This document shows positions 3,546 through 39,998 of a stretch of DNA of 39,998 bases, piece by piece. This DNA comes from a virus, in IMG/VR virus record IMGVR_UViG_3300035039_000082, positions 1 to 39,998 of that record; one strand, given 5' to 3'. Every line of letters starts with the position of its first letter. Position 1 is the stretch's first letter. The position numbers and the translations under genes were made by a program. Below the pieces are notes generated by a model, which did not search any database, was not told the origin of the DNA, and saw nothing but the letters and a program-made list of their open reading frames with translations.

Positions 3546-4139
3546 ATGCCAAAAAATAAAACAAAAAATAACTATCAAAATCTCGAAAGGCCCATAATTG
3601 AAGATATATTAACTCAACTATGGAAAGGAGTTACTTGCAAAGAATTAAGTAAAATACATTCAATACCGGCAAATATTATATATACAATCTCACAAGGAAA
3701 ATCTCATAAAGAGATTTATAATGAATTAACTGAAGATCAAAAGTTAAGAATTAAAAATAATATTGCTAAAAATTCTTCAATTTTAACAGATGATAAAGTT
3801 AAAGAAATCTATAACCATTTGTTAGAAGGTAAATTATCTCGTAAACAATTAGCAGAAATGTATAATATTTCAGAAAGTATGATTCATCATTTAATAGGTG
3901 GAATTAGCAGAAAGAAAATCTATAATCAATTATCAGATGATCAAAAGATAAAAATTAAAAATAATTATAGTTTAGACTCGGCAATTTTATCTCCTAAAGA
4001 TGTTATTCAAATTAGAGAATTATTTAAAGTATCTAATCTTTCAGATAAAGAAACATATCAAGAATTAGCTAAAAAATTCGGAGTTTGTAGATTAACAATC
4101 AATCGTATTATTAATCGAAAAGCTTGGACGCATATTTAA
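3546..4139 (+). CDS. Tandem HTH-repeat DNA-binding protein related to the C-terminal domains of this phage's HNH endonucleases, without the nuclease domain
   Basis: Repeats LT(D/E)xxVxxI...Y(N/S)Ix...IYN(E/Q)L(T/S)xDQK and terminal NRKAWTHI, shared with the 11099 and 38960 ORFs; no HNH Cys/His motif. Confidence 0.7.
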   Translation: MPKNKTKNNYQNLERPIIEDILTQLWKGVTCKELSKIHSIPANIIYTISQGKSHKEIYNELTEDQKLRIKNNIAKNSSILTDDKVKEIYNHLLEGKLSRKQLAEMYNISESMIHHLIGGISRKKIYNQLSDDQKIKIKNNYSLDSAILSPKDVIQIRELFKVSNLSDKETYQELAKKFGVCRLTINRIINRKAWTHI

Positions 4140-10980: not shown

Positions 10981-11098
10981 TAAATTTTTTTGTAATAATT
11001 TATTTTGTTTAATATTCTAAAATTTTATATATAAATATTAATAATATTGAAAACCGTTGTGGTTTTGTAAGAGTATAATATTTATAGGAGTATTTTTT

Positions 11099-11824
11099 AT
11101 GTTAAGTACAAAATTAGAAGATTATTCCCATTGTAATTTGATGGGATATGATTTAAAAACTTTACATCGATTATGGAGTAAAGTTATTATTCCAATTAAT
11201 TATGAAAATGATTGTTGGATTTGGACAGCTTCAACAAATAAAGATGGGTATGGAAATTTTTCAATAAAAGGTAAAAATTATATTGCTCATAGAATTACAT
11301 ATCAATGTTATAATGGTCCTATTTTGGATAATAATTTATTAATTAGACATTCATGTGATGTACCCGGTTGTGTAAGTCCTTATCATTTAAAAACAGGGAC
11401 AGATTATGATAATAAACATGATGCCATAAATCGCGGAAGACATGCTTATGGTGAAAAACATGGTGGGGCTATATTAACTGAAGATAATGTTAAAGATATT
11501 TTAAATTATCTTTGGGAAGGTAATATTTCTTGTGCAAAATTAGGTAAAATATATAATATTAGTTATACTACTATATATGATATAATTAAAGGTAAAACTT
11601 GGAAAAAAATTTACAATCAATTATCAGAAGTTCAAAAAGAAAAAATTGGGTTTAATATTAAAAATAATAATGGTAATCCAAAATTAAATGAAAATGATGT
11701 TATAAAAATAAGAGAATTGTATAACTCATCTAATATGAAAATAATAGATTTATCAAAAAAATTTAATGTTTATAGACTTACTATATCTAATATTGTTAAT
11801 CGAAAATCTTGGAAACATATTTAA
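11099..11824 (+). CDS. Free-standing HNH homing endonuclease with C-terminal HTH repeats (start moved to ATG 11099)
   Basis: CWIWT..DGYG..AHR..HSCDVPGCVSPYHLKTGT..DNKHD; AGGAG RBS. Confidence 0.9.
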   Translation: MLSTKLEDYSHCNLMGYDLKTLHRLWSKVIIPINYENDCWIWTASTNKDGYGNFSIKGKNYIAHRITYQCYNGPILDNNLLIRHSCDVPGCVSPYHLKTGTDYDNKHDAINRGRHAYGEKHGGAILTEDNVKDILNYLWEGNISCAKLGKIYNISYTTIYDIIKGKTWKKIYNQLSEVQKEKIGFNIKNNNGNPKLNENDVIKIRELYNSSNMKIIDLSKKFNVYRLTISNIVNRKSWKHI

Positions 11825-11836
11825 AAAACAAAATAT

Positions 11837-11913
11837 AGCCCCATAGCCAAATCTGGTAAGGCATCTGACTTTGACTCAGAGTATTGCTAGTTCAAATCTA
11901 GCTGGGGCTGCCA
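11837..11913 (+). tRNA. trnQ-UUG: tRNA-Gln(UUG)
   Basis: AGCCCCA/TGGGGCT-G-CCA; TCTGA-CTTTGAC-TCAGA; GCTAG-TTCAAAT-CTAGC. Confidence 0.95.
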
Positions 11914-11923
11914 TCTTTAAAAT

Positions 11924-11998
11924 GCCCGTATAGCTCAGTAGAAGAGCCACCGGCTCATAACCGGTCGGTCCTAAGTTCAATTCTTAGTGCGGGCACCA
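11924..11998 (+). tRNA. tRNA with CAU anticodon (elongator Met or Ile2)
   Basis: GCCCGTA/TGCGGGC-A-CCA; ACCGG-CTCATAA-CCGGT; CTAAG-TTCAATT-CTTAG; D loop lacks the usual GG. Confidence 0.85.
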
Positions 11999-12083
11999 TC
12001 GACTAAATGGAGAATTCATATAGATGTAACGTCCTATTTTGATGGAGGATGTTGTGATTTTCGTGATCTCCGCTAATTAATTT

Positions 12084-12160
12084 CGGGATATAGCGCAGTC
12101 TGGTAGCGCTCTTGCTTTGGGAGCAAGATGTCGTAAGTTCGAATCTTACTATCCCGACCA
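12084..12160 (+). tRNA. trnP-UGG: tRNA-Pro(UGG)
   Basis: CGGGATA/TATCCCG-A-CCA; CTTGC-TTTGGGA-GCAAG; bacterial-type C1-G72/A73. Confidence 0.95.
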
Positions 12161-14680: not shown

Positions 14681-15443
14681 TTTTGAAATAGATTTAAATG
14701 ATAATTATTTACAAGAAAATATTAACGAAAGATTATATCGAAATATAATAGAATATCATGATGATATTGATAAAGTAGAATATTTTGAAGGCGAACAAAA
14801 ATATATTGTTCATACTAAAAGTAATTATAAAAGTAGAGATAAAGATATATTTATTGGTAAACATTTTAAAATTAACCATGACAAAAAACATTTTTATCGT
14901 TATAATTATTTTGAATTTGAAATTAGTGATTTTTTAAGAGATAATTTTATTAAAAACAAAATGTCAATGTTATACAATTTCATTACAGATCAAAATATTA
15001 ATAAAATTATAGTAAGATCCGTAGATGATATTAAAATAGGCTTTTATAAAAATGTTATAAGTAATTATGTATCAGATTTATTAGATAACTCTTATTTTTC
15101 TGATAATATTATTGACACTATTATTATATTAGGATTAATTAAAAAATTAAATAATGATGAAATTAAAGAAATTTATTATGATATTTCAATTAATAATAAT
15201 TTTATGACAAATTTGATAAGAATATTTGAAAAACAAGATATGTCATTATTTAAAATAGATGAAATTATATATGATAAATTATATGAAGTTAAAAATTTAC
15301 CAACATTAACTATATTTAAAAATATAATATTTACAGATCATAATTCTAAATTTTATAAAAATTTATATGAATTTAAATTCGTATATACATTTATAAATTT
15401 AATAGCAAATACAATTCAATATAATCAAAAGGAGAAATTTTGA
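14673..15443 (+). CDS. Hypothetical protein (256 aa)
   Basis: Coupled ORF. Confidence 0.8.
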   Translation: MSSFEIDLNDNYLQENINERLYRNIIEYHDDIDKVEYFEGEQKYIVHTKSNYKSRDKDIFIGKHFKINHDKKHFYRYNYFEFEISDFLRDNFIKNKMSMLYNFITDQNINKIIVRSVDDIKIGFYKNVISNYVSDLLDNSYFSDNIIDTIIILGLIKKLNNDEIKEIYYDISINNNFMTNLIRIFEKQDMSLFKIDEIIYDKLYEVKNLPTLTIFKNIIFTDHNSKFYKNLYEFKFVYTFINLIANTIQYNQKEKF

Positions 15444-16867
15444 AAGTAAGTATTCCTTGTTTATATGCTGATTATGGAAGATATATTGATGCATTTCGTG
15501 GTATTCCTTCTTGTATAGATAGTTTAAAATTATCACAAAGAAGATCTTTATTAAGTCTTTTTGATGTTACTAAAGCAACTAAGAAGGTGAAAGCTGCGAG
15601 AGTAGTTGGTCATATTATTGGTTTTTATCATCCTCATGGTGACGTTTCCGCCTATATGACAGTTAAAGTTTTAGTTTGGCAAAACTATGCTGAAGGTCAA
15701 GGTAATTGGGGAGCTAGAAATTTAAAAGAAGATGATTCTCCGGCAGCAATGCGATATACTGAATGTAAATTAAAATCTTGGGTAAAAGATTTAGTATTCA
15801 AATATCATAAATTTGTACCTTGGGATAATTTTGAATTAGAAGATGAACCTTTATATTTACCTTGTATTGTACCAATTGGATTAATTGGATATGATAATAT
15901 TTCAGGTGGAGGTTTTCATAGAACTTTAATTCCTAAATATTCTTTAGAATCACTTTTAATTAGATTAAAATGGTTAATAGAAAATTGGGAAAATAGACCA
16001 GAATTTAAAGAAGGATTAGATCAATATTCAGAAGAAAAATATGGCCCACAAATTACTCCAAATTTTAGAGATTGTGTAGCTAAAGAAAATCTTCCTGGTG
16101 AATTTTATAAATTATTATATAACGGTCAAGGAGATATAAGAGCTATTCCAAATGGAACAATTCAAAATGGAAAATTATATGTTCTTGGAAAAGCTCCTAC
16201 TTTTAAGACTACTGCTATTGAAAGAGATATTGATAATAAATCTTTAGATGTCAAAATATTTAAAGAATTATCTGCGGACAAAAATAATCCATATTATATA
16301 TGTGGTGAATTTACTCCGAAGAATAAAAAAGTAGATCTTAAAGAATTATATAAAAAACTTTGGACAAAATATTTTATAAAGAATTTTAAATACACTTGTT
16401 ATTTTGTAAAAGATGAAATTCCTGAAATTATGGGAATTGATAATGTATTAGTAAATAATTATATTGCTTATATAAATGCAATTGAAAAATATCGAATAAT
16501 GATTTGTGAAAAATTAATTGAGAAATATTTCAATACAAGTTTAATATTAATTATTAAAGATATTATAACAAATTATAATTGTAATAAAGTTGACGATATC
16601 ATTGCTGTATTTCAAAGTAATAATATTCCAACTATTAAACAAGAGTATTATGAAAATTCTGTTTGGAAAGATAAAGATATTATAGTTACAGAAGATATGG
16701 TTAGAGATATTTGTAATACTAAAAGTATTAAACAGTTAGTTGAAGTTAAAAATGATATCCCTATTATTATAAATAATATTCAAGATGCTAAAACTGCAAT
16801 AGTGAATGTCCAAAATGATTGTTATAATGAAATTTGTGATATGATTAATAATCCGATTAAAATGTAA
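15440..16867 (+). CDS. Type IIA topoisomerase subunit A (GyrA/ParC-like breakage-reunion domain, no C-terminal pinwheel)
   Basis: DSLKLSQRR, K(A)ARVVG, YHPHGD, GQGNWG, AAMRYTE (catalytic Tyr). Confidence 0.92.
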   Translation: MKVSIPCLYADYGRYIDAFRGIPSCIDSLKLSQRRSLLSLFDVTKATKKVKAARVVGHIIGFYHPHGDVSAYMTVKVLVWQNYAEGQGNWGARNLKEDDSPAAMRYTECKLKSWVKDLVFKYHKFVPWDNFELEDEPLYLPCIVPIGLIGYDNISGGGFHRTLIPKYSLESLLIRLKWLIENWENRPEFKEGLDQYSEEKYGPQITPNFRDCVAKENLPGEFYKLLYNGQGDIRAIPNGTIQNGKLYVLGKAPTFKTTAIERDIDNKSLDVKIFKELSADKNNPYYICGEFTPKNKKVDLKELYKKLWTKYFIKNFKYTCYFVKDEIPEIMGIDNVLVNNYIAYINAIEKYRIMICEKLIEKYFNTSLILIIKDIITNYNCNKVDDIIAVFQSNNIPTIKQEYYENSVWKDKDIIVTEDMVRDICNTKSIKQLVEVKNDIPIIINNIQDAKTAIVNVQNDCYNEICDMINNPIKM

Positions 16868-17756: not shown

Positions 17757-18758
17757 GTGTTAGAAAACAAATCATGGTTTATGAAATATTCTCCAACAGA
17801 TATTAAAGATTTAATTTTTGATAGTGATGATCATAAAGAATTAGTTACTAAATGGTATGTTCAAGAATTTATTGATGGGAATGTTTTATTTTATGGTCCT
17901 TATGGACTAGGTAAAACAATAACATCAGAGATATTGATTCGACAAATTATAAAAGTACCTAATGATTTATTAATAGCAACTGATCGAAATGTTAAAGAAA
18001 TTCGAGATAAAATAACTCCATTTGTTCGTAAAAGCCCTGTTAAAAGTAAAAGAAAAATAGTTTATATTGAAGAAATTGATAAAATGCATCCTGACGCATT
18101 TAATTTATTAAAAACAGGATTGATGGAAAAATATCAAGATAATTGTTCTTTTGTTGCTTGTACTAATTATATTAAAAAAATAGAAGGTGCAACATTATCT
18201 AGATTTAATTTTAAAGTTCCATTTACTGGAAATAATATTCTTAAAATCTATGAAAGAATGAAATTTATTCTTGATACTGAAAAAGCTGAATATAATGATG
18301 AAGATTTAAAGAAATTTATTAAGAATAATTATAAAATCGGTATTAGAGAATTAATCAATCAATTACAGAATAGTTTTATTGCTAATAGTGGTAAGATTAG
18401 TTTTAAAAATATTAGTCAAACTGGAAGTATTGAAGAAAATATTATTAAATTGATTGTAAATATATTAAGCACTGTAATGAAAAGTGATGCTAAAAATAAA
18501 AAATTATGTTTAGACTATCCGGAAAATTCAGTTATTAATGAAGATTATAAACAATTAGTTATATTACTTCATAATAATTTAGATATAAATTATGATTATA
18601 TTTATAATCGATTATATGAATTAAGTAATTTTATTCCGATTAAAATGTTATGTGGGAGATATGCAGATCAAGCTGAATATAAGAAATTTCCACATATTAA
18701 TTTATTGGGATTTTATTATGAATTAATAAAAACAGTTTGTGAAATTAATAGAATTTAG
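17757..18758 (+). CDS. Clamp-loader AAA+ ATPase subunit (RFC-small/T4 gp44-like)
   Basis: WFMKYSP, Walker A GPYGLGKT, Walker B IEEID, CTN, LSRF. Confidence 0.9.
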   Translation: MLENKSWFMKYSPTDIKDLIFDSDDHKELVTKWYVQEFIDGNVLFYGPYGLGKTITSEILIRQIIKVPNDLLIATDRNVKEIRDKITPFVRKSPVKSKRKIVYIEEIDKMHPDAFNLLKTGLMEKYQDNCSFVACTNYIKKIEGATLSRFNFKVPFTGNNILKIYERMKFILDTEKAEYNDEDLKKFIKNNYKIGIRELINQLQNSFIANSGKISFKNISQTGSIEENIIKLIVNILSTVMKSDAKNKKLCLDYPENSVINEDYKQLVILLHNNLDINYDYIYNRLYELSNFIPIKMLCGRYADQAEYKKFPHINLLGFYYELIKTVCEINRI

Positions 18759-18835
18759 TTTTATTAGGAAAGCGGCAAAATTTAGATTCTTAAGATTTTG
18801 CCGCTTCCAAAAAATTATTAATTTAGGAGAACTAA

Positions 18836-19045
18836 ATGTCAAAAACTAAAGCAACTAAAATAAAAAAAATGAATAATGTGGAAGCATTTATTGATATGAC
18901 TGATAAAATTAGTAATATTATTGAAAATCCTTGTTGTTATTGTTATGACAAAAATTATTCTCATCCAAGTTGTCCTTGGTATGAAACTGGAGATTGTAAT
19001 CCAGCTAAGAAAGTATGTCAAATTAGTAAAACAATTTATTTATAA
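18836..19045 (+). CDS. Cys-rich hypothetical protein
   Basis: AGGAG RBS. Confidence 0.7.
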   Translation: MSKTKATKIKKMNNVEAFIDMTDKISNIIENPCCYCYDKNYSHPSCPWYETGDCNPAKKVCQISKTIYL

Positions 19046-19049
19046 AATT

Positions 19050-19082
19050 ATCCCCGGTAGACATTAATAGTCTGTCGGGGAT
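19050..19082 (+). terminator. Intrinsic terminator
   Basis: ATCCCCGGTAGAC...GTCTGTCGGGGAT + T run. Confidence 0.75.
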
Positions 19083-19174
19083 TTTTAATTTTTATTTATT
19101 TTAGATTCTTTATTTTCATATATAAATAATTATAATATGAATAATTTTTTATATATAAAAATAAGGAGAATAAA

Positions 19175-19387
19175 ATGAATAATTATATACTAAGCGATGA
19201 TTTAGAAGAAATTAAAGATACTTTAACATATCTTCCTTATATGATTTGTTTTCATCCAAAACCACCATATGAAATATGTGAACATGTATTAATGTTAGAT
19301 CCAAATAATATTGAATATATTCAATTAAAAGAAGAAAACCCTGATTATAATAAAATTTTAGAATTATATAGATTTTTAACTCTTTGA
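19175..19387 (+). CDS. Hypothetical protein (70 aa), E-x-Y-x-FL C-terminal family
   Basis: AAGGAG RBS. Confidence 0.75.
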   Translation: MNNYILSDDLEEIKDTLTYLPYMICFHPKPPYEICEHVLMLDPNNIEYIQLKEENPDYNKILELYRFLTL

Positions 19388-19402
19388 AAAAGGAAATTTT
19401 TT

Positions 19403-19612
19403 ATGGAAATTGAAGAATTTATTAAATATAAAGAAAAATTTACAAAAATTCTTATTAATAGAGGATTTGATGAAAAATTTGCTATAAATCAATTAAAAAA
19501 TTATGTTAATCTTATAGGTATAGATAATCTTAATAATCCTATTAATGATTTAAACGAATACATGATTGGGTATTGTAAAGAAAACAAATTAGGAACTTGG
19601 GATACTGAATAA
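19403..19612 (+). CDS. Hypothetical protein (69 aa)
   Basis: AAGGA RBS. Confidence 0.7.
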   Translation: MEIEEFIKYKEKFTKILINRGFDEKFAINQLKNYVNLIGIDNLNNPINDLNEYMIGYCKENKLGTWDTE

Positions 19613-19628
19613 AAAAGGAGAATAATAA

Positions 19629-20327
19629 ATGAATAAAGATATAATTGTTGCTGGTGATCTTCATGGAAATTGGGGAGCAATTAATACATTAATTAATAAA
19701 AAACAACCTAAAATAATTCTTCAAGTTGGTGATTTTGGATGGTTTCCTAATTTTGAAGTTAAGAACCCTGTAATTTATAATCATCAAGTTCCTTGGAAAT
19801 TAAAAGGAATTAAAACAAATGATACTAAAATATATTTTTGTGATGGCAATCATGAAAATCATGAAGATTTAATTCAGGATGGACAAATTTATGAATTATA
19901 TAAAAATGTCTATCATTGTAGTCGTGGAAGTATATTAGGATTGCCTGATGGAAGAAAAGTATTATTTATTGGTGGTGCAGAATCAATTGATAAAGATCAA
20001 AGATTAATTGGTCATGATTGGTTTCCCGGCGAGAATATTCAATATGGTCAACTTGCAAATTTGTTATATAATGAAGCTAATATTAAAAAAATTGATATTA
20101 TTATTTCACATACTTGTCCTTTTAAATTCGATATTTTAACTGAAAATGAATTTAAATTAAATGATAGAAATCGAAAAATATTAGATGAAATCTTAGATAT
20201 GTTTTCACCTGATTATTGGTATTTTGGACATTGGCATCGATATATTAAAGGTCATTATAAGAATACAAAATATTTTGGGTTAGATTATCCTAGAAAGAAT
20301 GCAACTTGGTGGAAATATCTTGATTAA
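19629..20327 (+). CDS. Calcineurin-like metallophosphoesterase
   Basis: GDLHG, VGDFG, DGNHE, SHT, FGHWH. Confidence 0.92.
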   Translation: MNKDIIVAGDLHGNWGAINTLINKKQPKIILQVGDFGWFPNFEVKNPVIYNHQVPWKLKGIKTNDTKIYFCDGNHENHEDLIQDGQIYELYKNVYHCSRGSILGLPDGRKVLFIGGAESIDKDQRLIGHDWFPGENIQYGQLANLLYNEANIKKIDIIISHTCPFKFDILTENEFKLNDRNRKILDEILDMFSPDYWYFGHWHRYIKGHYKNTKYFGLDYPRKNATWWKYLD

Positions 20328-29565: not shown

Positions 29566-31371
29566 TTGGAAAAATCTGTTGAAACAGAAAAAGATACATA
29601 CAAAGCGTTAAATTCGATAGATGCTATTCGAATTCGACCTGGTATGTATGTAGGTGACACAGTTAATCCAAACCAATTAGTCACTGAAATTTTAGATAAT
29701 TCGTTAGATGAAATTGGAAATAATTATGCAAATTTATTACAGTTAAATATTGATATAAATAATAATCATTGTTGGATTGTAGATAATGGTAGAGGGTTAA
29801 AAGTATATAATATGAAAGATTCAAATGGAGTCTTAAAAGATTCTATTGAATTATTATGTACTGATACTCATACTGGATCTAAGTTTGATAATGATGATTA
29901 TGGTGTATTAATTGGGATGCATGGTGTTGGTTTAGTTGTTGTGAATGCTTTATCAAATTGGTTAGTAGTTAAAACTCGTGATCGAGAAAATAAACATATT
30001 GTTTATGAATATCAATTTATAAATGCAACAGAATCAGTAACTAAACAACAGTATGAAGACTATGAAGATATTAATTCATGGTCAACTATTGTAGGATTTC
30101 AACCAAATAGTCAGTATTTTGAATCTGATAAATTTGTAGTTGAAGAATTAGCAAAAAGATTATTATTAGCTCAGGCTAAATTTAATGAATGTGATTTTTA
30201 TTTTAATGATAAAAAATTAACTAAAAGAACATTTCATGAATATATTAAATTATTATTTAAATGTGAAACAGATTTTAAAAAATTATCATATGAAATAGCA
30301 CCTAACCAAAAGATAGAAATTTATCTTAATTATGTAGAATCGCAATATACTAATATATTAGGCGATGTTAACTTGAGACACTGTGAAGGAACATATTTAA
30401 CATCTTTTCAAACATTATTAAAAAATAAAGTTTCTGAAAAATTAGGAAAGATAGTTGAAAATGTAAATCCAAATTATTTATTGAATGGATTAAATTGTTA
30501 TATTTCTTTAGTTGTTCCTGAACCTAAATATGATTCTCAATCTAAAGTTCGAATGACATTAAATGTAAAAGATTTAATTAATCCTTTACATGATCAAGTG
30601 GACTGGTTTTTGGATAATGATACTCTCGCTATCATTCAAAAGAATTTGGAAAAAACATTAAAGAAAAAATTAGCTATTTCATTAAATAAATCTGTTAATA
30701 TTTCTGCGAAGAATAAATTAAGAGATTGTTTAAAGACACCTGGTGAAATATTATATATTGTTGAAGGTGAGTCCGCTCTTGGACCATTGAAACAAATTAG
30801 AGATATTAATACAGAGGCTATTTATCCTCTTAGAGGCAAAGTATTAAATGTAGAAAAAGCTACTATTGATAAAATTAGTAATAATAAAGAAATTACTGAT
30901 TTAATTGAAGCTTGTGGTCCGAAGAATAATCGAAGATATAAGAAAATTAAATTATTAATGGATGCTGATATTGATGGATATCATATATCTGTATTAATCT
31001 TATTGGTCGTTCAAAAGTTTTTAAAAGATTATATACAAAGTGGTAATCTTTCTATTATAATGCCACCATTATATGGTGTTAATATAAAAGGTAATCACTT
31101 AGCTGTATATGATCAAAAGGATTTAGCTCAATACCAAAATAAATATGAGATTACTCGATTTAAAGGTCTTGGTGAGATGAATCCAATTCAGTTGGAAGCG
31201 GCGATTCGATCTAATGTTGAATATGTTGTTCAATATCCAGATACAAAAGAATCGCTAGAAACAATAATCAATGTTATAACTAATTCAGATCTTAAAAAAC
31301 AAATGTTAAGAAGACCTGAATTTAATTTAAAAACACTATTGAGCAAAGTTCTCAATAGTAAACAACCTTAA
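29566..31371 (+). CDS. Type IIA topoisomerase subunit B (GyrB/ParE-like)
   Basis: RIRPGMYVG, EILDNSLDE, DNGRG, GMHGVG, VEGESA, PLRGKVLN, DADIDGYHI, RFKGLGEMNP. Confidence 0.95.
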   Translation: MEKSVETEKDTYKALNSIDAIRIRPGMYVGDTVNPNQLVTEILDNSLDEIGNNYANLLQLNIDINNNHCWIVDNGRGLKVYNMKDSNGVLKDSIELLCTDTHTGSKFDNDDYGVLIGMHGVGLVVVNALSNWLVVKTRDRENKHIVYEYQFINATESVTKQQYEDYEDINSWSTIVGFQPNSQYFESDKFVVEELAKRLLLAQAKFNECDFYFNDKKLTKRTFHEYIKLLFKCETDFKKLSYEIAPNQKIEIYLNYVESQYTNILGDVNLRHCEGTYLTSFQTLLKNKVSEKLGKIVENVNPNYLLNGLNCYISLVVPEPKYDSQSKVRMTLNVKDLINPLHDQVDWFLDNDTLAIIQKNLEKTLKKKLAISLNKSVNISAKNKLRDCLKTPGEILYIVEGESALGPLKQIRDINTEAIYPLRGKVLNVEKATIDKISNNKEITDLIEACGPKNNRRYKKIKLLMDADIDGYHISVLILLVVQKFLKDYIQSGNLSIIMPPLYGVNIKGNHLAVYDQKDLAQYQNKYEITRFKGLGEMNPIQLEAAIRSNVEYVVQYPDTKESLETIINVITNSDLKKQMLRRPEFNLKTLLSKVLNSKQP

Positions 31372-31385
31372 AAGGAGAAAATATT

Positions 31386-32057
31386 ATGAACGCATCTTTT
31401 AACACACCTCCCCCGTTTAAAAAAGGAAATCCCGCAGCACAGGCTCCTCCTGCACCAGAACAGGCCGCTCCCCAGGCAGCACCGGTTCCGCCTCAGGCAG
31501 CTGCTCAGGCTCCCCCTGCACCAGAACAGGCCGCTCCCCAGGCAGCACCGGTTCCGCCTCAGGCAGCTGCTCAGGCTCCCCCCGCACCTCCGCAGGGAAC
31601 TACACCGGCAACACCTGCAGAAGCTCCGGCAGAAAAGAAGAAACAGAAGAAAAATAATGTTATGATCAATGGTGATCATATTAAATTTGTTCTGCAGAAT
31701 ATTAAGAAGATGAATTATACTGAAATTGCAGAAAAACTCGAAATTACAAAGAATCAGGTTAATCGTATTCTTCAGACTCTGAAAGGTGGTATTGACCAGA
31801 AGGGTAATAATTTTGGTCTTCGTGGTAAAGCTCTTGATGAAGCTGCTGCTGCTGGAACTCAGGCGTATGGTTTGAAAGAAGATGGTAAACCCGATTATTC
31901 ACAGCCGGTTTCTGAATTGGCTCAGAAAGTTGAAGCTAAAATTGAAGCTGAACTTTCTCGTCCGGCAGATTCTCGTCCTGGTGCTGGTCGTAAGGGTGGT
32001 GGAGCTGTTAAACAGGCTCTTGATTCCCAGCTCGACGAATTGCTGGCAGGACTTTAA
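31386..32057 (+). CDS. Pro/Ala/Gln-rich repeat protein with a putative HTH domain
   Basis: AAGGAG RBS; MNYTEIAEKLEITKNQVNRILQTL HTH-like segment; GC-richer codon usage. Confidence 0.75.
   Translation: MNASFNTPPPFKKGNPAAQAPPAPEQAAPQAAPVPPQAAAQAPPAPEQAAPQAAPVPPQAAAQAPPAPPQGTTPATPAEAPAEKKKQKKNNVMINGDHIKFVLQNIKKMNYTEIAEKLEITKNQVNRILQTLKGGIDQKGNNFGLRGKALDEAAAAGTQAYGLKEDGKPDYSQPVSELAQKVEAKIEAELSRPADSRPGAGRKGGGAVKQALDSQLDELLAGL
31440..31589 (+). repeat. 66-bp coding tandem repeat (about 2.3 copies)
   Basis: Units start at 31440, 31506 and 31572 (QAPPAPEQAAPQAAPVPPQAAA). Confidence 0.9.
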
Positions 32058-32164: not shown

Positions 32165-32362
32165 ATGGCTAAATATAAATCTTTTGGTGATTGGTATAAA
32201 CAAGTTGCAAAAAGATGTATTTACTTTATTGGGAAATGGGAATTAGGAGATAATGAAGAAACTGGTATTCCAGTATTAAGTTATTGTAATCATAAATATA
32301 ATTTAGATGATTTTGAAGGTAATTGTAATGAACGTCAATGTCCTGGACCAATTTATAAATAA
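32165..32362 (+). CDS. Hypothetical Cys-containing protein (65 aa)
   Basis: AGGAG RBS. Confidence 0.75.
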   Translation: MAKYKSFGDWYKQVAKRCIYFIGKWELGDNEETGIPVLSYCNHKYNLDDFEGNCNERQCPGPIYK

Positions 32363-32460: not shown

Positions 32461-34098
32461 ATGGCTAAAAAAGAAATTAAAAAGAAAACTCTTAATTTCT
32501 TAGATTTTTTAAAAGATTTAACTAATTATTTAAATAGTAATAATTATAACATTGAAACTATATTAAGATCTATTGATAAACATAAAGTTAATAATCAATT
32601 TTTATTTAAAAGATTATTTGCATATAATTATAATAACCCATATATTATTTGGTATATTAATAAATATATGAATGATAAATATAAATTTTTTTATTATGAT
32701 ACTAAAAATTATTTAACAAGTTTTAAATATATTATGAATAGTAATAATCAAAAAAAATTATTCTTTTTTAAAGCTAAAGATTTTAAAGATGAAAATAAAT
32801 ATAAAGTTAAAAGTCTTTTAAAAGAATATTATAGTTATGTTCATAAAAAATATTTAAATGATATGGAACTAAATCAATTATACTTATTATTTTGCAAACA
32901 AATAATTACTGTTGATGAATTAAAAAAGATTGATAAATTATTAAATGGTGAAAAATCTAATCTTGATTTAGATATTGATTTTTTAAATAAAGTATCTTCT
33001 GATACGAATATTATTGATAATAAAGAAAAATTAGATGAGTATATTCAATATAGTTTAACAAGACAATTACCGACTGAAATTTTTGAATTTATAAAATCTT
33101 TAAAAGAAAAAAAAGAAAATAGATCTGAATGTTCTAATTGTAAATTAAAAAATAATGAAATGTTAGTATTAGATACTAATAAAGATTCTTTTGGTGAAGT
33201 AGATTTTATGTTTATAAATCTTAATCCAGATAAAGAATCTGCCGCTTATAATAAAGTTTGTTGTGATGAGAGCGGTAAAATACTTAGACAAAATTTATTT
33301 TATTTTGATAAGAAAATAACTTGGTGTATGATTAATATTATTCAATGTACTACAAAAACTGATTCTGAAATTGGAAAAACACCAAAACAAATTAAGACAG
33401 TAGCTCAGAATTGTCAAGATTTTTTAACACAAATATTTCAAAAATTTACAGCTAAATTTTATATTCCTATTGGCAAACATGCTATGGAGTATTTTGGCAT
33501 TAAAGGATCTATTGTTCAAAATTGTGGCCAAATTATTAAAGTTAATAATAATCAAATAACTATGATTCCTTTAATTAATCCAAGCTCTATTAGAATGAAT
33601 GAAAGTATTAATAAACCAGTTTATGATAACGCTTGGAATATATTATATCAAATTGGAAATAAATTATCTCAGAAAACAATTACAACAACATTAAATCAAA
33701 ATATTCAACAATTACCTACAACAGATATTCAACAAATTTCACAAAATCAAAATATTCAACAAGGTACAAATTCTTTAATTAAACCAGGAGAATTTAATTT
33801 ACCTTCTGAAAAAATTATTAGTATTGTTACTGATAATTTAACATATTTTGATAGTGTTAATTTGGATGGTAATCGGATATTAAATATTTATATTGATGAA
33901 AATGGTGAAAAATTTTATAATCTTGAGAAATTTGAAATTCCAATATATATTAAAAATGTTTCTTATGATCAATGTAGTATGTTAAATGATAATTTTGATT
34001 ATGTTACTTATATAAATGGGTGGAATAGATATAAATTATCTAAAGGATTAAAAGATAACTTATTAAAGCATAGATATTCTGCTGAACAAAATAATTAG
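32461..34098 (+). CDS. Multidomain replication protein: gp62-like clamp-loader subunit (tentative) + family-4 UDG-like Fe-S domain + PolB N-terminal-domain fragment
   Basis: CSNCKL...DFMFINLNP..E...SGKILR...NIIQC...CQDFL...IPIGKHA...INPS follows the UDG-4 layout; C-terminal GNRILNIYIDENGEK resembles the T4 gp43 N-terminus. Confidence 0.6.
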   Translation: MAKKEIKKKTLNFLDFLKDLTNYLNSNNYNIETILRSIDKHKVNNQFLFKRLFAYNYNNPYIIWYINKYMNDKYKFFYYDTKNYLTSFKYIMNSNNQKKLFFFKAKDFKDENKYKVKSLLKEYYSYVHKKYLNDMELNQLYLLFCKQIITVDELKKIDKLLNGEKSNLDLDIDFLNKVSSDTNIIDNKEKLDEYIQYSLTRQLPTEIFEFIKSLKEKKENRSECSNCKLKNNEMLVLDTNKDSFGEVDFMFINLNPDKESAAYNKVCCDESGKILRQNLFYFDKKITWCMINIIQCTTKTDSEIGKTPKQIKTVAQNCQDFLTQIFQKFTAKFYIPIGKHAMEYFGIKGSIVQNCGQIIKVNNNQITMIPLINPSSIRMNESINKPVYDNAWNILYQIGNKLSQKTITTTLNQNIQQLPTTDIQQISQNQNIQQGTNSLIKPGEFNLPSEKIISIVTDNLTYFDSVNLDGNRILNIYIDENGEKFYNLEKFEIPIYIKNVSYDQCSMLNDNFDYVTYINGWNRYKLSKGLKDNLLKHRYSAEQNN

Positions 34099-34106
34099 GA
34101 GAAAAT

Positions 34107-35471
34107 ATGTGGTGTTATTTAGAATCTAAAAATATAGATAATTTTATAAATCAATATCCTATTTTTAAAGATGACCTAAACAATTATATTATTTTACAAA
34201 TTAAAGATGCTTGTTTTTTGCCTAGATTATTTTATTATAATTACCCATCAGAATATTTAATTCAATATTTTGGAAAGAAACAAATTCCATTAGGTAGAAT
34301 TGAAAATGAGTTTCATGGAAATCTTAGGTCAGCTCAAAAATCTGCCGCTTCCAAAATAAAAAAAATATTTGAAACTCAAGGATTTGTAAATGGTATATTA
34401 AAATTACCACCTGGCGCAGGTAAAACAGTTTTAACAGTATATATTGCATGTATGTTAAAATTAAAAACATGTATTATTATAGATAGTAATTCATTATTGA
34501 AACAATGGATTGAAGCAATAATGGAATTTGCTAATTTAAAAGAAGATGATGTTGGATTAATAAAAGGTAAATTATTTGTAACAGATAAGCCTTTTACAAT
34601 AGCAATGACACAATCATTATCTTCTAAAATTAAAAGAGAATTTAATAAAATAATTAAAAAAGTAGATGAATCTCAATTTGGATTAGTAGTATATGATGAA
34701 GTACATACAACTTCATCAACTTCAGTATATTCAAAAGTAAATATATTATTTAGAACACCAAATGTATTAGGATTATCAGCTACACCTTTTCATCAAGGCA
34801 TGTCTAAAATATTAATGGAAAATACTATTGGTAAATTAATATTTGAATCAAATGAATATGAAATGACTCCTGAATATAAAATGATATTTTATGATAGTAA
34901 ATTAAAAAAATATAGTTATGTTATGAATACTTTATTAACTGACTATATTCAAAAGAAAGGTTATTATAATAAAATATTAGTAAATAGTGATGTATATGTT
35001 ACATTAGTAGTTAAATTGGCTGGTATATTAAGAAATAAAGGTCATAATGTTTTTATTGTTTGTATGAATAAAAAACAAGTTGAAATTATTTCTGAGAATT
35101 TAGAAATTAAAGGTTTAAAAAATCGAAGATATACTGGTGATGAAACAGAAATAGATAAAGACAATGATAATATTATTGTTTCAACATATGCATTTACTGG
35201 TAAAGGATTTGATATGAGTCGTTTAGGTGGATTAATTTTAGCTTGTCCTTTAAGCGGCAAAAAATCTGTCATTCAAGTAGTTGGTCGAGTATTAAGATCA
35301 TACCAAGGAAAAATACAACCTATTGTTTATGATTTAGTTGATCTTTGTTTTCCAATGTTTTCATTACCAGAAGTAAAAAGAAAACAAAATATCATTGCAA
35401 ATGAATTTCCTAATTGTAAAATTGAAACTATTGATTTAAAGGAAAAGATGAATGCAGGATCAAATAAATGA
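34107..35471 (+). CDS. Superfamily 2 DExH helicase (UvsW/XPB-like)
   Basis: LRSAQ, LPPGAGKT, YDEVH, GLSATP, KGFD, QVVGRVLR. Confidence 0.92.
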   Translation: MWCYLESKNIDNFINQYPIFKDDLNNYIILQIKDACFLPRLFYYNYPSEYLIQYFGKKQIPLGRIENEFHGNLRSAQKSAASKIKKIFETQGFVNGILKLPPGAGKTVLTVYIACMLKLKTCIIIDSNSLLKQWIEAIMEFANLKEDDVGLIKGKLFVTDKPFTIAMTQSLSSKIKREFNKIIKKVDESQFGLVVYDEVHTTSSTSVYSKVNILFRTPNVLGLSATPFHQGMSKILMENTIGKLIFESNEYEMTPEYKMIFYDSKLKKYSYVMNTLLTDYIQKKGYYNKILVNSDVYVTLVVKLAGILRNKGHNVFIVCMNKKQVEIISENLEIKGLKNRRYTGDETEIDKDNDNIIVSTYAFTGKGFDMSRLGGLILACPLSGKKSVIQVVGRVLRSYQGKIQPIVYDLVDLCFPMFSLPEVKRKQNIIANEFPNCKIETIDLKEKMNAGSNK

Positions 35472-37479
35472 TTTTTTAGAAAGAGATTTTTATAAGACTG
35501 TAGAGATACCAGGTCATTTGAATCATGTATTATACAGTGATAGTGTAGCTAAATATACAAAAATTGTAATTCAAAGACAAAATGAAAATTATTCAACAAC
35601 TATTACATTTGATAAATTGTGGGATGAATTAGTTAATTTAGGTCATAAAGTAATATATTTGAATGATAAAGAATATATTTATATTAATAATAAAATTAAA
35701 ACTTTAACATATTATATAAAAAAAGATGAATTGAGTTTAGAATATCCTCAATATATTATGAGACATAAAGTTAATACAGAATTATATTCTATAAATCCGA
35801 ATAATTCAAATCATTTAGATATAACACAAAATCATTCTATGTTAAAATATAATCCTTCTAATAACTTATTTGATATTATTAAACCCGTGGATTGTCAATG
35901 GTTACCAATTATCAATAATCAATTTAATTTTGATTGTTCGATAAATATTGATTATTTATTATTAGGATTATATTATGGAGATGGTTCATTTTCATTAAAT
36001 CAAGATTATCCAGCTATTAGTATTGGAAATAGAAATGAAGTTGTTAATTTTATTTCAAATTATATACCTAATTTTATAACATATGATAAAACTAACGAAT
36101 TTGATTTTTATGTTAATTATAAAAAATTTACAAATATGCTAAATTATTATAATTTAAAAGGTATTAAAAGTGAAAATAGAATAATATCTGATAAATTATT
36201 TGATGATTTGAATTATGATCATAATAAATTATTAAATTTTATATGTGGTTATTTTTTAGCTGATGGGTCTTTTAATGTTGGAATGATAGTATTTTCTTCA
36301 AGTAATTATTATTTGTTAAATTCAATATCTATATTGTTGAATAATATTGGAATATATTCTCAAGTAATTACAGATAAAAATAATAGAAAATATAGAACTA
36401 AATTAAAAGGAGACATGTATAAACTTAAATTATATATGTCTAATTCAAATATAATAAATATGTTGAATTTAATAGATATATATAAAGAATCTCCAAAAGT
36501 AGTATGTAAAGGTTCTTTTTTTGGCAAATCAACGTCAAAAACTGGAATTACTAAAAAATATAAAAATGCAAAGCTTAAAAATGTAAGAGCATTACATGTT
36601 ACAGAAAGAGATATAATTCAATATAATGATTATGTTTATGATATTTGTATTCCATCTACTCAAATTTTTATAGCTAATGGAGTATTAGTACACAATACTG
36701 ATTCAATTATAATCAAGATTCCATCGAAAAAAGATATTGATAAAGATAATCTTAAATATTTATGGGATGTTGCGGAAAAATCTGCCGAGGAAATAAATAA
36801 TTTAATAGTAGATTATACTAGAAATGTATTACTTCCAAGATGTAATATAAGTGCGGATCATAATGAAACTTTTTTCAAAACAGAATTATTAATGGAATCT
36901 ATATTATGTTTAGATGTTAAGAAAAAATACGCATATAAATTATTAGTTAAAGAAGGCAATGTATTAAAGAAACCAAAGATTAGTTATACTGGTATTGAAG
37001 TAATTAAATCTAATGGAATTAAATTAACTCAAGATTTATTAAAAGCAATTATTGAGGAAGTAGCATTAAATTTAGAAGTACCAGTAAATCAAAAAAGAGA
37101 AAAAACATTAAAATTAATTGATGATTTTTATAATACATTTAATCAATGTATTCAAGATTTTAATATAGATTATATTGGTATTCCTGGCAAATGGTCTAAA
37201 AATAAACAAATTATCGAAGGTATGAAATTATATAATCATATTATGAATGAAATTATTTTTGAACCAGGATCTGCAGCAAAATTTATTTATACTAAACCAA
37301 TTCAAATTAAAGATTTTAAGAATCAAATGGGAATATGTATTCCATATTCTTATAATATAGAATTATTAAAAGAAAAATTTCAGACATTTAATATTCAAAT
37401 CGATGTTAATACACAATGGTCAAAATTATTTAATATTACTTGTGAAAGAGTTATTAATACAATTAAAAAATTAGAATAA
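35452..37479 (+). CDS. Split family-B DNA polymerase, C-terminal piece (motif C + thumb), intein-containing
   Basis: After splicing reads VLYSD-TDSIII, then FKTE, KKKYA, YTGIEVIKS; mature product about 290 aa with no motif A, motif B or exonuclease. Confidence 0.9.
   Translation: MQDQINDFLERDFYKTVEIPGHLNHVLYSDSVAKYTKIVIQRQNENYSTTITFDKLWDELVNLGHKVIYLNDKEYIYINNKIKTLTYYIKKDELSLEYPQYIMRHKVNTELYSINPNNSNHLDITQNHSMLKYNPSNNLFDIIKPVDCQWLPIINNQFNFDCSINIDYLLLGLYYGDGSFSLNQDYPAISIGNRNEVVNFISNYIPNFITYDKTNEFDFYVNYKKFTNMLNYYNLKGIKSENRIISDKLFDDLNYDHNKLLNFICGYFLADGSFNVGMIVFSSSNYYLLNSISILLNNIGIYSQVITDKNNRKYRTKLKGDMYKLKLYMSNSNIINMLNLIDIYKESPKVVCKGSFFGKSTSKTGITKKYKNAKLKNVRALHVTERDIIQYNDYVYDICIPSTQIFIANGVLVHNTDSIIIKIPSKKDIDKDNLKYLWDVAEKSAEEINNLIVDYTRNVLLPRCNISADHNETFFKTELLMESILCLDVKKKYAYKLLVKEGNVLKKPKISYTGIEVIKSNGIKLTQDLLKAIIEEVALNLEVPVNQKREKTLKLIDDFYNTFNQCIQDFNIDYIGIPGKWSKNKQIIEGMKLYNHIMNEIIFEPGSAAKFIYTKPIQIKDFKNQMGICIPYSYNIELLKEKFQTFNIQIDVNTQWSKLFNITCERVINTIKKLE
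35542..36696 (+). mobile_element. Intein (385 aa) with LAGLIDADG endonuclease, inserted in YSD|TDS
   Basis: Starts SVAKYTKI; block B ITQNHSM; LLGLYYGDGS and ICGYFLADGS; YVYDI...FIANGVLVHN|T. Confidence 0.95.
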
Positions 37480-37986: not shown

Positions 37987-39998
37987 ATGGAGACTATTCC
38001 ATTAGAACAAGTTTTAAATCAATTAGAACTTGGGGAATTATCATATAATCAATTTTATAATGCTGAAATTGAAGCATCACAATATTTTTCGATAAAACAT
38101 TATCATAGTTATCCAAAAGATAATATGGATAAAGATCAAATATTAAAAATATTATTTGCAGATATTGAAGTATATAAATGTGATTTAGAAATATTTAGAA
38201 AGAAAAAAGAGTCATCTGGTCCTATTAATGCTATAACATTTTTTGATAATATATCAAAATGTTATTATGTTTTTGTATTACTTATGATGACTAAAAATTA
38301 TAATCTTATTGATGTTAAAAATCCAAACAAATATGTTCAAGAATATAAAAAAGAATTATTAGAAAATAAGTATATAAAAGAAGATGAAGATATAAAAATA
38401 TTTTTTTATATTGATGAAGAACTGAAAATGCTTGAAGATATGTGGACTTTAATTCATAAAATAGATCCGGCAATTTTAACTGGATTTAATAGTCATTATT
38501 TTGACTATCCATATATTTATTATAGATTAAAAGTTTTATATAATGGAAATGAAGATCAAGTTCATAAATTAATGAGTAAATTTGGAATAGTTAAAAATCG
38601 AAGTTATGCAATGGGTACATTGTTTTCGATTCCTGAGTATCCAATATGTGATTTACGTAGACTCTATATGCCGAGAGATGAATCAGGTTAATCGTATGAT
38701 TAGACCAATTTATCAGTAATGATAATTTTAAAAATTTCGTGAATTGCTGGAATATCCTTAGAGCTTATTATACTACAACGTGACTTGAAAAGGTGAGCGT
38801 GAAAGTTTAAAAAATAATAAGATTGGACAATCAGCAGCCAAGACTCTAAGTAGATTTCGCTAATCTATATGAGTAAGGTTCAACGACTATCCCTTTTGGG
38901 AGTACACTCAAGCGAGTGGAAGTGCGAGACATCCTATATAAAAAGATAGAGGTAATAATATGGAAGATTATAATAAAATGAATTATACTACTAAAATTTT
39001 AAAACGATTTTGGTCCAAAGTAATAATACCAGACGATTATATTAATCAATGTTGGATATGGACAGGATATATAAATAATGGATATGGTTCGGTTTATGTG
39101 AATGGTAAACAAATTAGAGCTCATATATTTTCATATCAATCATATAATGGCCCTTTCCCAAAGAATTTATTAATTCGACATACATGTGATATTAAAACTT
39201 GTGTAAATCCAAATCATTTATTAATTGGTACACATCAAGATAATATGGATGATGCTGTTGAACGTAATAAAATAGCACATGGTGAAAAACAAGGAATATC
39301 GATCTTAACTGAAAATAAGGTTAAATTCATTTTAACATCTTTATTAAATGATACATATAGTTCAAGACAATTAGCAAATATGTTTGGTGTTAAACGTACA
39401 ACAATTAATAAAATATCTTCTGGTCGAAATTGGAAAAGAGTATATGATACTTTTTCTAATGATGAAAAGAAAAAAATAAGATATAATATTAGTAATAATG
39501 CTGGTAATCCAAGAGTTATTTCACCAAATAATGTTAAATTAATGAGAGAAATTTTTGAAAATAATAAAATTTCTTATGATAAAATTGCAAATCAATTTAA
39601 TATAGCGACAATGACAGCTTATAATATAATTAATAGAAAAAGTTGGAAACATATTTAATAATATATAGGATGATGATATAGTCTGATCTATATGGTAACA
39701 TATAGCTGGATGATAATTCCGGAGGGTGATTAGCGATCTCCCTTGAACATAATGTAAATTATGGAAAGAAATTAAGTCAATATTCTTTAGATTCTATTTC
39801 AGAAAAAGAATTAGATATTAAAAAAATTGAATACGCAGATACTGGAATGAATTTAGATCAATTATATGAAAGAGATCCAGTAACATTTATTAAATATAAT
39901 ATTGGTGATGTTGCACTTTGTGTAAGATTAAATGAAAAATTAAAACATATTGAATTGCATAATATGTTAAGAAGAGATATGAAAACACCATTTAGTTC
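37987..39998 (+). CDS. Split family-B DNA polymerase, 3'-5' exonuclease-containing piece: exon 1 37987-38689, exon 2 39755->39998 (runs off the window)
   Basis: ExoI FADIEVY, ExoII TGFNSHYFDYPYI; spliced junction ...RDESG-L-NYGKKLSQYSLDSISEKEL...YNIGDV (ExoIII). Confidence 0.9.
38690..39754 (+). mobile_element. Group I intron (1065 nt) in the PolB exonuclease gene, ORF in the P8 loop
   Basis: P1 GGTT/GACC with U.G. AATTGCTGGAA, AATCAGCAG, GTTCAACGACTA. P7 GACTA(38885)/TAGTC(39679). P8 CATCCTATATA(38930)/TATATAGGATG(39662). Terminal G at 39754. Splicing restores the frame. Confidence 0.92.
38960..39658 (+). CDS. Intron-encoded HNH homing endonuclease
   Basis: RFWSKV, CWIWTG..NGYG, RAH, HTCDIKTCVNPNHLLIGT..DNMDD; terminal NRKSWKHI. 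Confidence 0.93.
   Translation: MEDYNKMNYTTKILKRFWSKVIIPDDYINQCWIWTGYINNGYGSVYVNGKQIRAHIFSYQSYNGPFPKNLLIRHTCDIKTCVNPNHLLIGTHQDNMDDAVERNKIAHGEKQGISILTENKVKFILTSLLNDTYSSRQLANMFGVKRTTINKISSGRNWKRVYDTFSNDEKKKIRYNISNNAGNPRVISPNNVKLMREIFENNKISYDKIANQFNIATMTAYNIINRKSWKHI

Follow-up and report, generated by a model that had tools for sequence, protein, structure and literature searches.

The DNA considered here comprises the first 39,998 bases (the window, that is, the whole stretch analyzed) of the 109,263-base virus record IMGVR_UViG_3300035039_000082 (G000), a linear sequence with a G+C content of 24% and a completeness of about 52% as judged by CheckV. The product of an open reading frame (ORF) at positions 32461-34098 of this window is probably a conserved polymerase subunit, belonging to a family-B DNA polymerase (PolB) of the T4 type that is specified by three genes; the last ~88 residues of the protein are predicted to dock non-covalently onto a separate chain carrying the exonuclease and part of the palm (the exo/palm chain) and in this way to provide the polymerase N-terminal domain with its first half. 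The polymerase piece is preceded by a domain with the fold of a uracil-DNA glycosylase (UDG) and by a helical N-terminal domain, and we refer to the gene as the UDG-NTD gene. Its modules are laid out as follows.

32461-34098, plus strand: the whole gene, 545 amino acids (aa) in three modules (helical N domain; UDG-type domain with linker; PolB N-terminal-domain piece), as seen in the ORF list and in homologs.
32491-32778, plus strand: aa 11-106, a module of four or five helices, candidate clamp-loader collar-like domain.
32779-33072, plus strand: aa 107-204, long helices and a poorly conserved connector (helices 113-145, 151-162 and 188-200 in the AlphaFold2 (AF2) model).
33073-33672, plus strand: aa 205-404, family-4-type UDG fold with four Cys, motif A NLNPD and motif B NPS.
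33673-33831, plus strand: aa 405-457, Q/N/T-rich flexible linker.
33832-34095, plus strand: aa 458-545, five strands and a long helix, predicted first half of the PolB N-terminal domain (hhalign, predicted docking, AF2 secondary structure).

The UDG-NTD gene is real and conserved, and it belongs to a large family. It starts with an ATG codon preceded by an AGGAG ribosome site, and a word-indexed protein search recovered 18 full-length homologs (498-559 aa, 32-58% identity, query coverage 94-100%). An exhaustive search with a profile of the N-terminal 205 aa retrieved 119 representative clusters at E ≤ 0.001, 92 of them at 1e-10. The profile matches and the 18 homologs were combined, with 29 proteins of less than 430 aa excluded as probable gene fragments, and the 105 clusters of 431-582 aa (median 506) exhibit the same three modules throughout. 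The match to the N domain begins within the first ~30 residues in proteins of at least 430 aa, while some of the shorter, gene-fragment-like entries match the N-domain profile only in its later part. The C-terminal module (C module) is present with at least 50 residues in 104 of the 105 relatives and is the most highly conserved part of the protein (0.45); the linker is the least conserved (0.15) and the most variable in length (6-81 aa). A Q/N/T-rich linker had already been noticed in a first-pass annotation made from the DNA letters, and its low pLDDT values in the AF2 model (26-54) and its variable length agree with that description. The whole 545-aa protein matched no PHROGs family at E ≤ 0.01, and among 19 scanned family members no family recurred in more than two; one of the 19 matched phrog_17 ('DNA polymerase') at E 0.0022, a match for which the region is not shown. 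A tblastn search of 50,697 phage records with the protein returned a single record, matched in the UDG domain of a family-A polymerase (PolA), and no cultured relative within this collection.

The other parts of the polymerase were located by six-frame searches of the record with the PHROG profile of the T4-type polymerase, which has 856 positions. Profile positions 1-100 found no match anywhere in the record in this search; the remaining matches were the following.

38101-38607: profile positions 103-241.
39766-40059: profile positions 272-367.
42576-42914, outside the window: profile positions 441-564.
36682-37464, upstream of the exonuclease part: profile positions 574-837.

These matches fall into two genes, one of which is interrupted by an intron within the window.

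35452-37479, plus strand: PolB chain 3, palm motif C and thumb (profile positions 574-837), with an N-extein of 30 aa and a LAGLIDADG intein in motif C.
37987-38689, plus strand: PolB chain 2, exon 1, the end of the N-terminal domain and the exonuclease domain (profile positions 103-241).
38690-39754, plus strand: group I intron (Rfam RF00028) that harbors, at 38960-39658, the ORF of an HNH homing endonuclease (PF13392, 7e-10).
39755-39998, plus strand: start of PolB chain 2, exon 2, which continues past the window with motif A, another intein, another intron and motif B.

Three genes specify the polymerase both here and in three related records (G001, 62 kb; G002, 286 kb; G003, 315 kb, with terminal repeats), each of which contains one UDG-NTD gene; the multi-chain PolB proposed in the first-pass annotation is therefore an observed arrangement. 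In all three related records the exo/palm chain extends to profile position ~565, and the palm/thumb chain starts at position 561-572, reaching position 844 in G002. The exo/palm genes of G002 and G003 are uninterrupted ORFs of 701 and 704 aa that begin at profile position ~90, and the palm/thumb ORFs of these two records (289-296 aa) start ~20 aa before the sequence YGDTDS. The gene order is permuted, as the palm/thumb chain is encoded 5' of the exo/palm chain; the order UDG-NTD, thumb, exo is also found in G001 and G003, while in G002 the exo gene comes first. Since the same three genes occur in three related records, the splits are old and maintained, and not remnants that the introns and inteins of this particular phage left behind.

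The mobile elements themselves are readily delimited. The intein of the thumb chain occupies aa 31-415 (nt 35542-36696) within motif C (LYSD/S...VHN/TDS), and that of the exo/palm chain lies in motif A at about 40,290-41,390 of the record (VDLDA/S...VHN/TALYP). RF00028 matches the first intron at 38683-38930 with 48 bits (gathering threshold 50; E 8e-11) and again at 39671-39703; a U precedes this intron and a G stands at its end. A relative with 98% identity, P0020, is intronless and thereby defines the splice junction as ESG-L-NYGKK. A second intron-like stretch follows the motif-A exon at about 41,400-42,090 of the record; it contains no long ORF, and an alignment of its first ~300 bases with the first intron has a mean column identity of 81%. 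The fact that P0020 possesses neither the first intron nor the motif-A intein indicates that these elements were recently mobile.

What the two other chains leave uncovered is the very start of the polymerase. Aligned to the PolB profile, the exonuclease chain begins only at a position corresponding to T4 aa 104 (E 2.5e-22), and it is without the first ~80-100 residues of a T4-type polymerase. For comparison with the C module, a reference alignment of 18 non-redundant T4-type polymerase N-termini was assembled from loci around gp62 genes. With hhalign, the C segment matched columns 3-44 of the 424 columns of this alignment with a score of 28.2 (E 0.0016), placing aa 460-501 of the protein on aa 2-43 of T4 gp43. 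None of 200 column shuffles reached this score (mean 13.8, sd 2.5, maximum 22.3), and the reversed alignment scored 11.0. T4 gp43 alone was matched at the same place with an E-value of 0.019, and a 101-sequence profile gave 0.009. As the C segment covers the PolB N-terminus and the exonuclease chain sets in at T4 aa 104, the two chains are complementary. The first-pass annotation had likened the C-terminus to the start of T4 gp43 and had recognized this start as the part absent from the exonuclease gene; both points held up, the former as a weak, correctly placed similarity. The AF2 model of the C module consists of five strands and one long helix, presumably the same order of elements as at the start of RB69 gp43.

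The complex of the C segment (aa 441-545) with aa 1-410 of the exonuclease chain of P0020 was predicted alongside three controls. Three runs gave ipSAE values of 0.92, 0.90 and 0.89, against 0.00 for the best of the three controls, with 184-196 contacts, a partner pLDDT of at least 79 and agreement between runs in at least 77% of the contacts; the mark set for this tool is reached by 116 of 157 solved complexes and by 2 of 215 mismatched pairs. The interface on which the first-pass annotation had made its proposal depend, namely one with the exonuclease chain, is hence predicted. On the exonuclease chain this interface comprises two separate stretches, aa 1-54 and 308-346, as would be expected of a single N-terminal domain composed jointly of both stretches and the C module; we take the N-terminal domain of RB69 to be built in a similar way from aa 1-108 and 340-382. 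The complex prediction, being a model, adds independent weight to the assignment of the C module as a PolB piece.

Several points weigh against this assignment. A hidden Markov model (HMM) search of PDB sequences with the C segment yielded no PolB and just two unrelated entries, 4lqz at E 0.27 and a poxin at E 1.3, and none of 14 C segments scanned against the PHROGs matched a family labelled DNA polymerase. In a cross-comparison of 12 pairs, a presumably unrelated pair (the UDG segment and gp44) scored 21.1 (E 0.026), so that scores of 22-23 are not discriminating; the sequence evidence for a PolB piece is weak on its own and would not carry the claim. The docking result may reflect the memory that the model has of intact PolB structures, that is, a likeness in fold and not a measured binding, and, as an intron interrupts the chain encoded in the window, that of P0020 served as the partner. 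Among 7574 candidates of 955-2725 aa no fused, full-length UDG-PolB form was found at E ≤ 0.001, which is weak evidence. Fold searches with the whole model returned lists filled by the UDG domain.

The lack of an HMM-level link between the C segment and PolB, together with E-values of only 0.0016 to 0.019, is what one would expect if the similarity were fortuitous and the gene encoded a stand-alone repair glycosylase with accessory domains. We nevertheless consider such a coincidence very improbable: the match lies at the exact N-terminus, precisely the part absent from the exonuclease chain; it falls in the most conserved part of the protein; the docking values stand at 0.90 versus 0.00; and the gene co-occurs with the split exo and thumb genes in all four genomes. 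Joining of the C module to the exonuclease chain by protein or RNA splicing was considered as well and dropped, given the variable C-termini within the family and the fact that the exonuclease chains have their own Met; no intein-like sequence was seen at either end when alignments and translations were inspected by eye, a dedicated scan for intein motifs not being part of this inspection.

The central domain of this probable polymerase subunit is recognized as a UDG by Pfam (aa 247-395, 27.7 bits, cut-off 24.3), and aa 205-404 possess the alpha/beta fold typical of these enzymes. When the family profile was compared with solved structures, the family-4 UDGs 4zbx (5.7e-13), 1vk2/1l9g (1.7e-10) and 1ui0 (7.6e-10) were matched, as was the family-A polymerase of phiLo in its UDG domain (9qhs, 1.7e-4). 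Four cysteines (C224, C227, C296, C318) are present in family-4 spacing, align with Cys residues of 4zbx and 1vk2, and are retained in 104-105 of the 105 relatives; in family-4 enzymes these cysteines are the ligands of a 4Fe-4S cluster. The two motifs depart from family 4. Motif A reads NLNPD in place of G-E-(A/G)-P-G, and the majority form in the family is G/A-L-N-P-G, with an Asn at the position of the family-4 Glu; motif B reads NPS in place of H-P-S, its His being retained in 63 of the 105 relatives. The UDG layout with four Fe-S-type cysteines and the two altered motifs had been described in the first-pass annotation in just these terms. What that annotation did not contain are the family-wide conservation, the separate palm/thumb gene, and the restriction of the Gly and His loss to a subgroup.

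Of the 105 relatives, 47 retain N255, G257 and H373 together, 32 retain none of them, and 26 are mixed. The commonest motif forms are GLNPG/HPS (22 members) and ALNPG/HPS (12), while the class of the phage studied here, with the Asn kept and both the Gly and the His lost, has eight members. As read from these motifs, Gly and His were lost in one subgroup of the family only. The correlated way in which the motif residues are lost while the cysteines are kept suggests that part of the family gave up catalysis and retained the UDG fold. We assume that an Asn is found at this place of motif A in MUG/TDG-type enzymes, and members with GLNPG/HPS may well be active. In the phage at hand, the UDG domain likely binds only DNA or a base, as a sensor or processivity aid, with the putative Fe-S site kept.

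This proposed inactivity is deduced from motifs, and the Asn of LNP is retained. An enzyme still active through this Asn, excising uracil or a modified base ahead of the polymerase, is in our view unlikely, but it has points in its favor. MUG/TDG-type enzymes presumably use the Asn of G-I-N-P-G, N255 is kept, TDG, MUG and SMUG folds are among the structural matches, and the NPS of motif B resembles, as far as we are aware, that of E. coli MUG. Moreover, active PolA-UDG fusions exist, as stated in PMC13697223, which also provides the opposite precedent of N4-like PolA-UDG domains without catalytic residues. The distribution of the motifs over the family speaks against activity, since a correlated loss, with 47 members keeping all of N, G and H and 32 being without all three, looks like relaxed selection on catalysis. 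A trimeric dUTPase and ThyA were found in none of the four genomes and ThyX in one of them (G003); no conclusion on modified DNA follows from these counts.

In the helical N-terminal domain the first-pass annotation had seen a counterpart of T4 gp62, the partner of the gp44-type clamp-loader ATPase, for which there is a single gene in the record.

17757-18758, plus strand: gp44-like clamp-loader ATPase, the sole one in the record (phrog_168, 8.7e-38).

One strong gp44-like gene was found in each of the four genomes. No conserved ORF or gp62-type gene follows it, either at 17757-19629 or in the four genomes, and six-frame searches of the four genomes with the gp62 families phrog_225 and PF16790 gave nothing at E ≤ 10. 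The resemblance of the N domain to gp62 was rejected at the sequence level: whether run in local, alternative or global mode, hhalign comparisons of the family or the N segment with T4 gp62 alone and with 32 gp62 homologs yielded E-values of 0.12-0.51, and 4 of 100 shuffles reached the score of the N segment. The N-domain profile matched no PDB sequence at E ≤ 10, and the ESM Atlas gave no usable match for aa 1-200.

Searches by fold and with a gp44 profile yielded hints of another kind. The N domain is all-helical in the AF2 model. Foldseek found nothing with it at E ≤ 0.001; at E ≤ 10 there were 17 rows, including 8unf_A, a 187-aa chain of the T4 clamp loader (E 7.5, TM 0.3), which is not significant. 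In a fold search with the N domain, 10 of the 50 top rows were C-terminal domains of clamp loaders or clamp-loader-like AAA+ proteins, T4 gp62 included, with weak Z scores of 3.8-6.3; these rows (among them 3bge_B, 2gno_A, 7z6h_K, 3pvs_A, 8g28_B, 8tw7_1 and 9uiq_A) all fall on model residues 5-114. Fold matches of aa 107-204 are of the coiled-coil type only, and the connector at aa 166-204 has a conservation of 0.19. When the N-segment profile was compared by hhalign with a 32-sequence gp44 alignment, it matched columns 234-315 of 322, which correspond to the C-terminal domain (E 0.019; 0.0064 with aa 1-100 alone), and none of 150 shuffles reached this score. Taken singly, each of these items lies below its own noise level; that they point to one domain class and to one region amounts to a lead and falls short of a result. 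We rate the chance that aa 11-106 form a domain of the clamp-loader collar type as a little short of even, and a true replacement of gp62 by the N domain as rather unlikely.

An N domain unrelated to the clamp loader has a comparable standing in our estimate, just under an even chance. It would be a lineage-specific module that binds, for example, the helicase, the primase, the single-stranded DNA-binding protein or DNA, and the clamp loader of these phages would either work with no gp62-type subunit or include one that has diverged beyond detection. Three observations are less easily reconciled with such a module, namely that 10 of the 50 top structural rows belong to one functional class and all lie on the same region of the model, that an independent profile method maps this region to the same domain of gp44, and that gp62 is undetectable in 4/4 genomes even though each has a gp44-like gene.

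Returning to the assignment of the protein as a polymerase subunit, we envision that the C module would dock onto the exonuclease chain and complete the polymerase N-terminal domain, as predicted, and that the flexible linker of 6-81 aa would hold the UDG fold next to this domain, near the incoming template; the PolB N-terminal domain presumably sits where the single-stranded template enters the enzyme. In members with GLNPG/HPS the UDG domain would then likely excise or sense uracil ahead of synthesis, after the manner of phage PolA-UDG fusions, and in the phage studied here, with the Gly of motif A and the His of motif B lost, its role would likely be confined to the binding of DNA or a base. 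For SP15-like family-A polymerases, PMC13697223 describes a UDG domain that recognizes deoxyuridine ahead of the fork. In the most speculative step, the candidate collar-type domain at aa 11-106 might stand in for gp62 and tie the gp44-like clamp loader to the polymerase. The first-pass annotation had summarized such ideas as a hub protein; the fusion of a UDG-type domain via a linker to a PolB piece stands, while the tether to the clamp loader stays hypothetical, with weak leads at aa 11-106. A hard-wired replisome in a clade of giant AT-rich phages, in which one polypeptide would combine a fifth, gp62-equivalent clamp-loader subunit, an Fe-S UDG-fold template sensor and a piece of a three-chain PolB, is in our judgment doubtful as a whole. 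If true, the covalent fusion would couple clamp loading, uracil surveillance and synthesis, a tau-like solution in a T4-type system.

The UDG-NTD gene is surrounded by a replication module on the plus strand that includes topoisomerase II pieces, a primase-like gene, the gp44-like ATPase, a superfamily 2 (SF2) helicase, an HU-type protein and the T4-type PolB pieces.

34107-35471, plus strand: SF2 helicase (ResIII/DEAD; Pfam PF04851 2.4e-23, phrog_16 5.6e-49), which precedes the thumb gene here and in relatives.

In G001 and G002 a helicase-like ORF, its translation judged by eye, lies immediately 5' of the thumb gene; in the window the helicase ORF shares its last 20 bases with the start of the thumb ORF. 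The functions of topoisomerase II are divided between two distant genes, a phrog_551-type piece and a GyrB-like piece of 601 aa, at 15440-16867 and 29566-31371; the GyrB-like label rests on reading the sequence by eye and not on a scan of a family library. Just 5' of the UDG-NTD gene lies a small Cys-rich ORF (32165-32362, 65 aa) that matches no family and has an AGGAG site of its own as well as a near-identical stretch resembling a promoter (ttcttataat). Further upstream, a G+C-richer island at 31386-32057 (33% versus ~22%) codes for a protein of 223 aa in which Pro/Ala-rich tandem repeats (PPAPEQAAPQAAPVPPQAAAQA, twice) precede a weak match to a helix-turn-helix. A cluster of three tRNA genes (Gln-TTG, Met-CAT, Pro-TGG) at 11837-12160 is found directly 3' of an HNH endonuclease gene (11057-11824), and a further HNH-type gene is located at 3546-4139.

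Family-B polymerases are usually single chains. The family described here, with at least 105 representative clusters, exhibits a T4-type polymerase divided once within its N-terminal domain and a second time ahead of motif C, and it illustrates that polymerase pieces can be encoded out of order and that the smallest fragment can anchor a UDG-fold domain. The motif-intact and motif-decayed versions of this domain constitute a natural series on the role that a polymerase-tethered UDG has after cutting stops. Should the clamp-loader lead hold, it would account for the missing gp62 and offer a new model for the coupling of loader and polymerase.

Like the natural split PolBs, the polymerase is assembled from separately encoded chains, and one of its splits lies in the palm, ~22-30 aa before motif C and, we believe, near the archaeal split site. 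The natural splits reported in PMC3061061 affect the fingertip in five T4-like phages, the palm in Methanobacterium thermoautotrophicum, and the stretch that separates the N domain from the palm in phage RM378. Each of those polymerases is, according to that source, specified by two genes. The one described here involves three, with one cut inside the N-terminal domain; its gene order is permuted, the thumb gene lying upstream of its exo counterpart, and the smallest of its pieces is joined to further domains. An intein/HNH element that splits a PolB is described in PMC6892783, and a survey of jumbo-phage replication, in the part available (PMC7824862), does not include the present arrangement. 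Searches of the open-access literature, supplements excluded, brought to light neither a UDG fused to a PolB fragment nor a fusion of a clamp-loader subunit with part of a polymerase.

Polymerase-tethered UDGs are known from phage family-A polymerases with an N-terminal UDG domain, which is active in the SPO1-like and SP15-like enzymes and inactive in the N4-like ones, the phiLo PolA being available as PDB 9qhs. Here, a T4-type polymerase of family B is involved, the only polymerase part joined to the UDG is a fragment of ~88 aa on a separate chain, and the UDG has an extra helical N domain in front of it; relative to family 4 itself, motif A has an Asn at the position of the Glu. In the poxvirus E9-A20-D4 holoenzyme (PDB 8q3r), and among the PolB-UDG contacts of herpesviruses and African swine fever virus, a family-1-type UDG is held in trans by A20, whereas the domain described here has a family-4-type Fe-S fold and stands in cis with a polymerase fragment. 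The N domain differs from T4 gp62 and the A subunits of clamp loaders in that it has no membership in the PF16790 or phrog_225 profiles, and, compared with tau of E. coli Pol III, the coupling would be achieved by fusion to a polymerase fragment and not by a binding domain. Themes known from other systems are combined in this arrangement: a PolB in pieces, a UDG tethered to a polymerase and, possibly, a loader and a polymerase coupled in the manner of tau.

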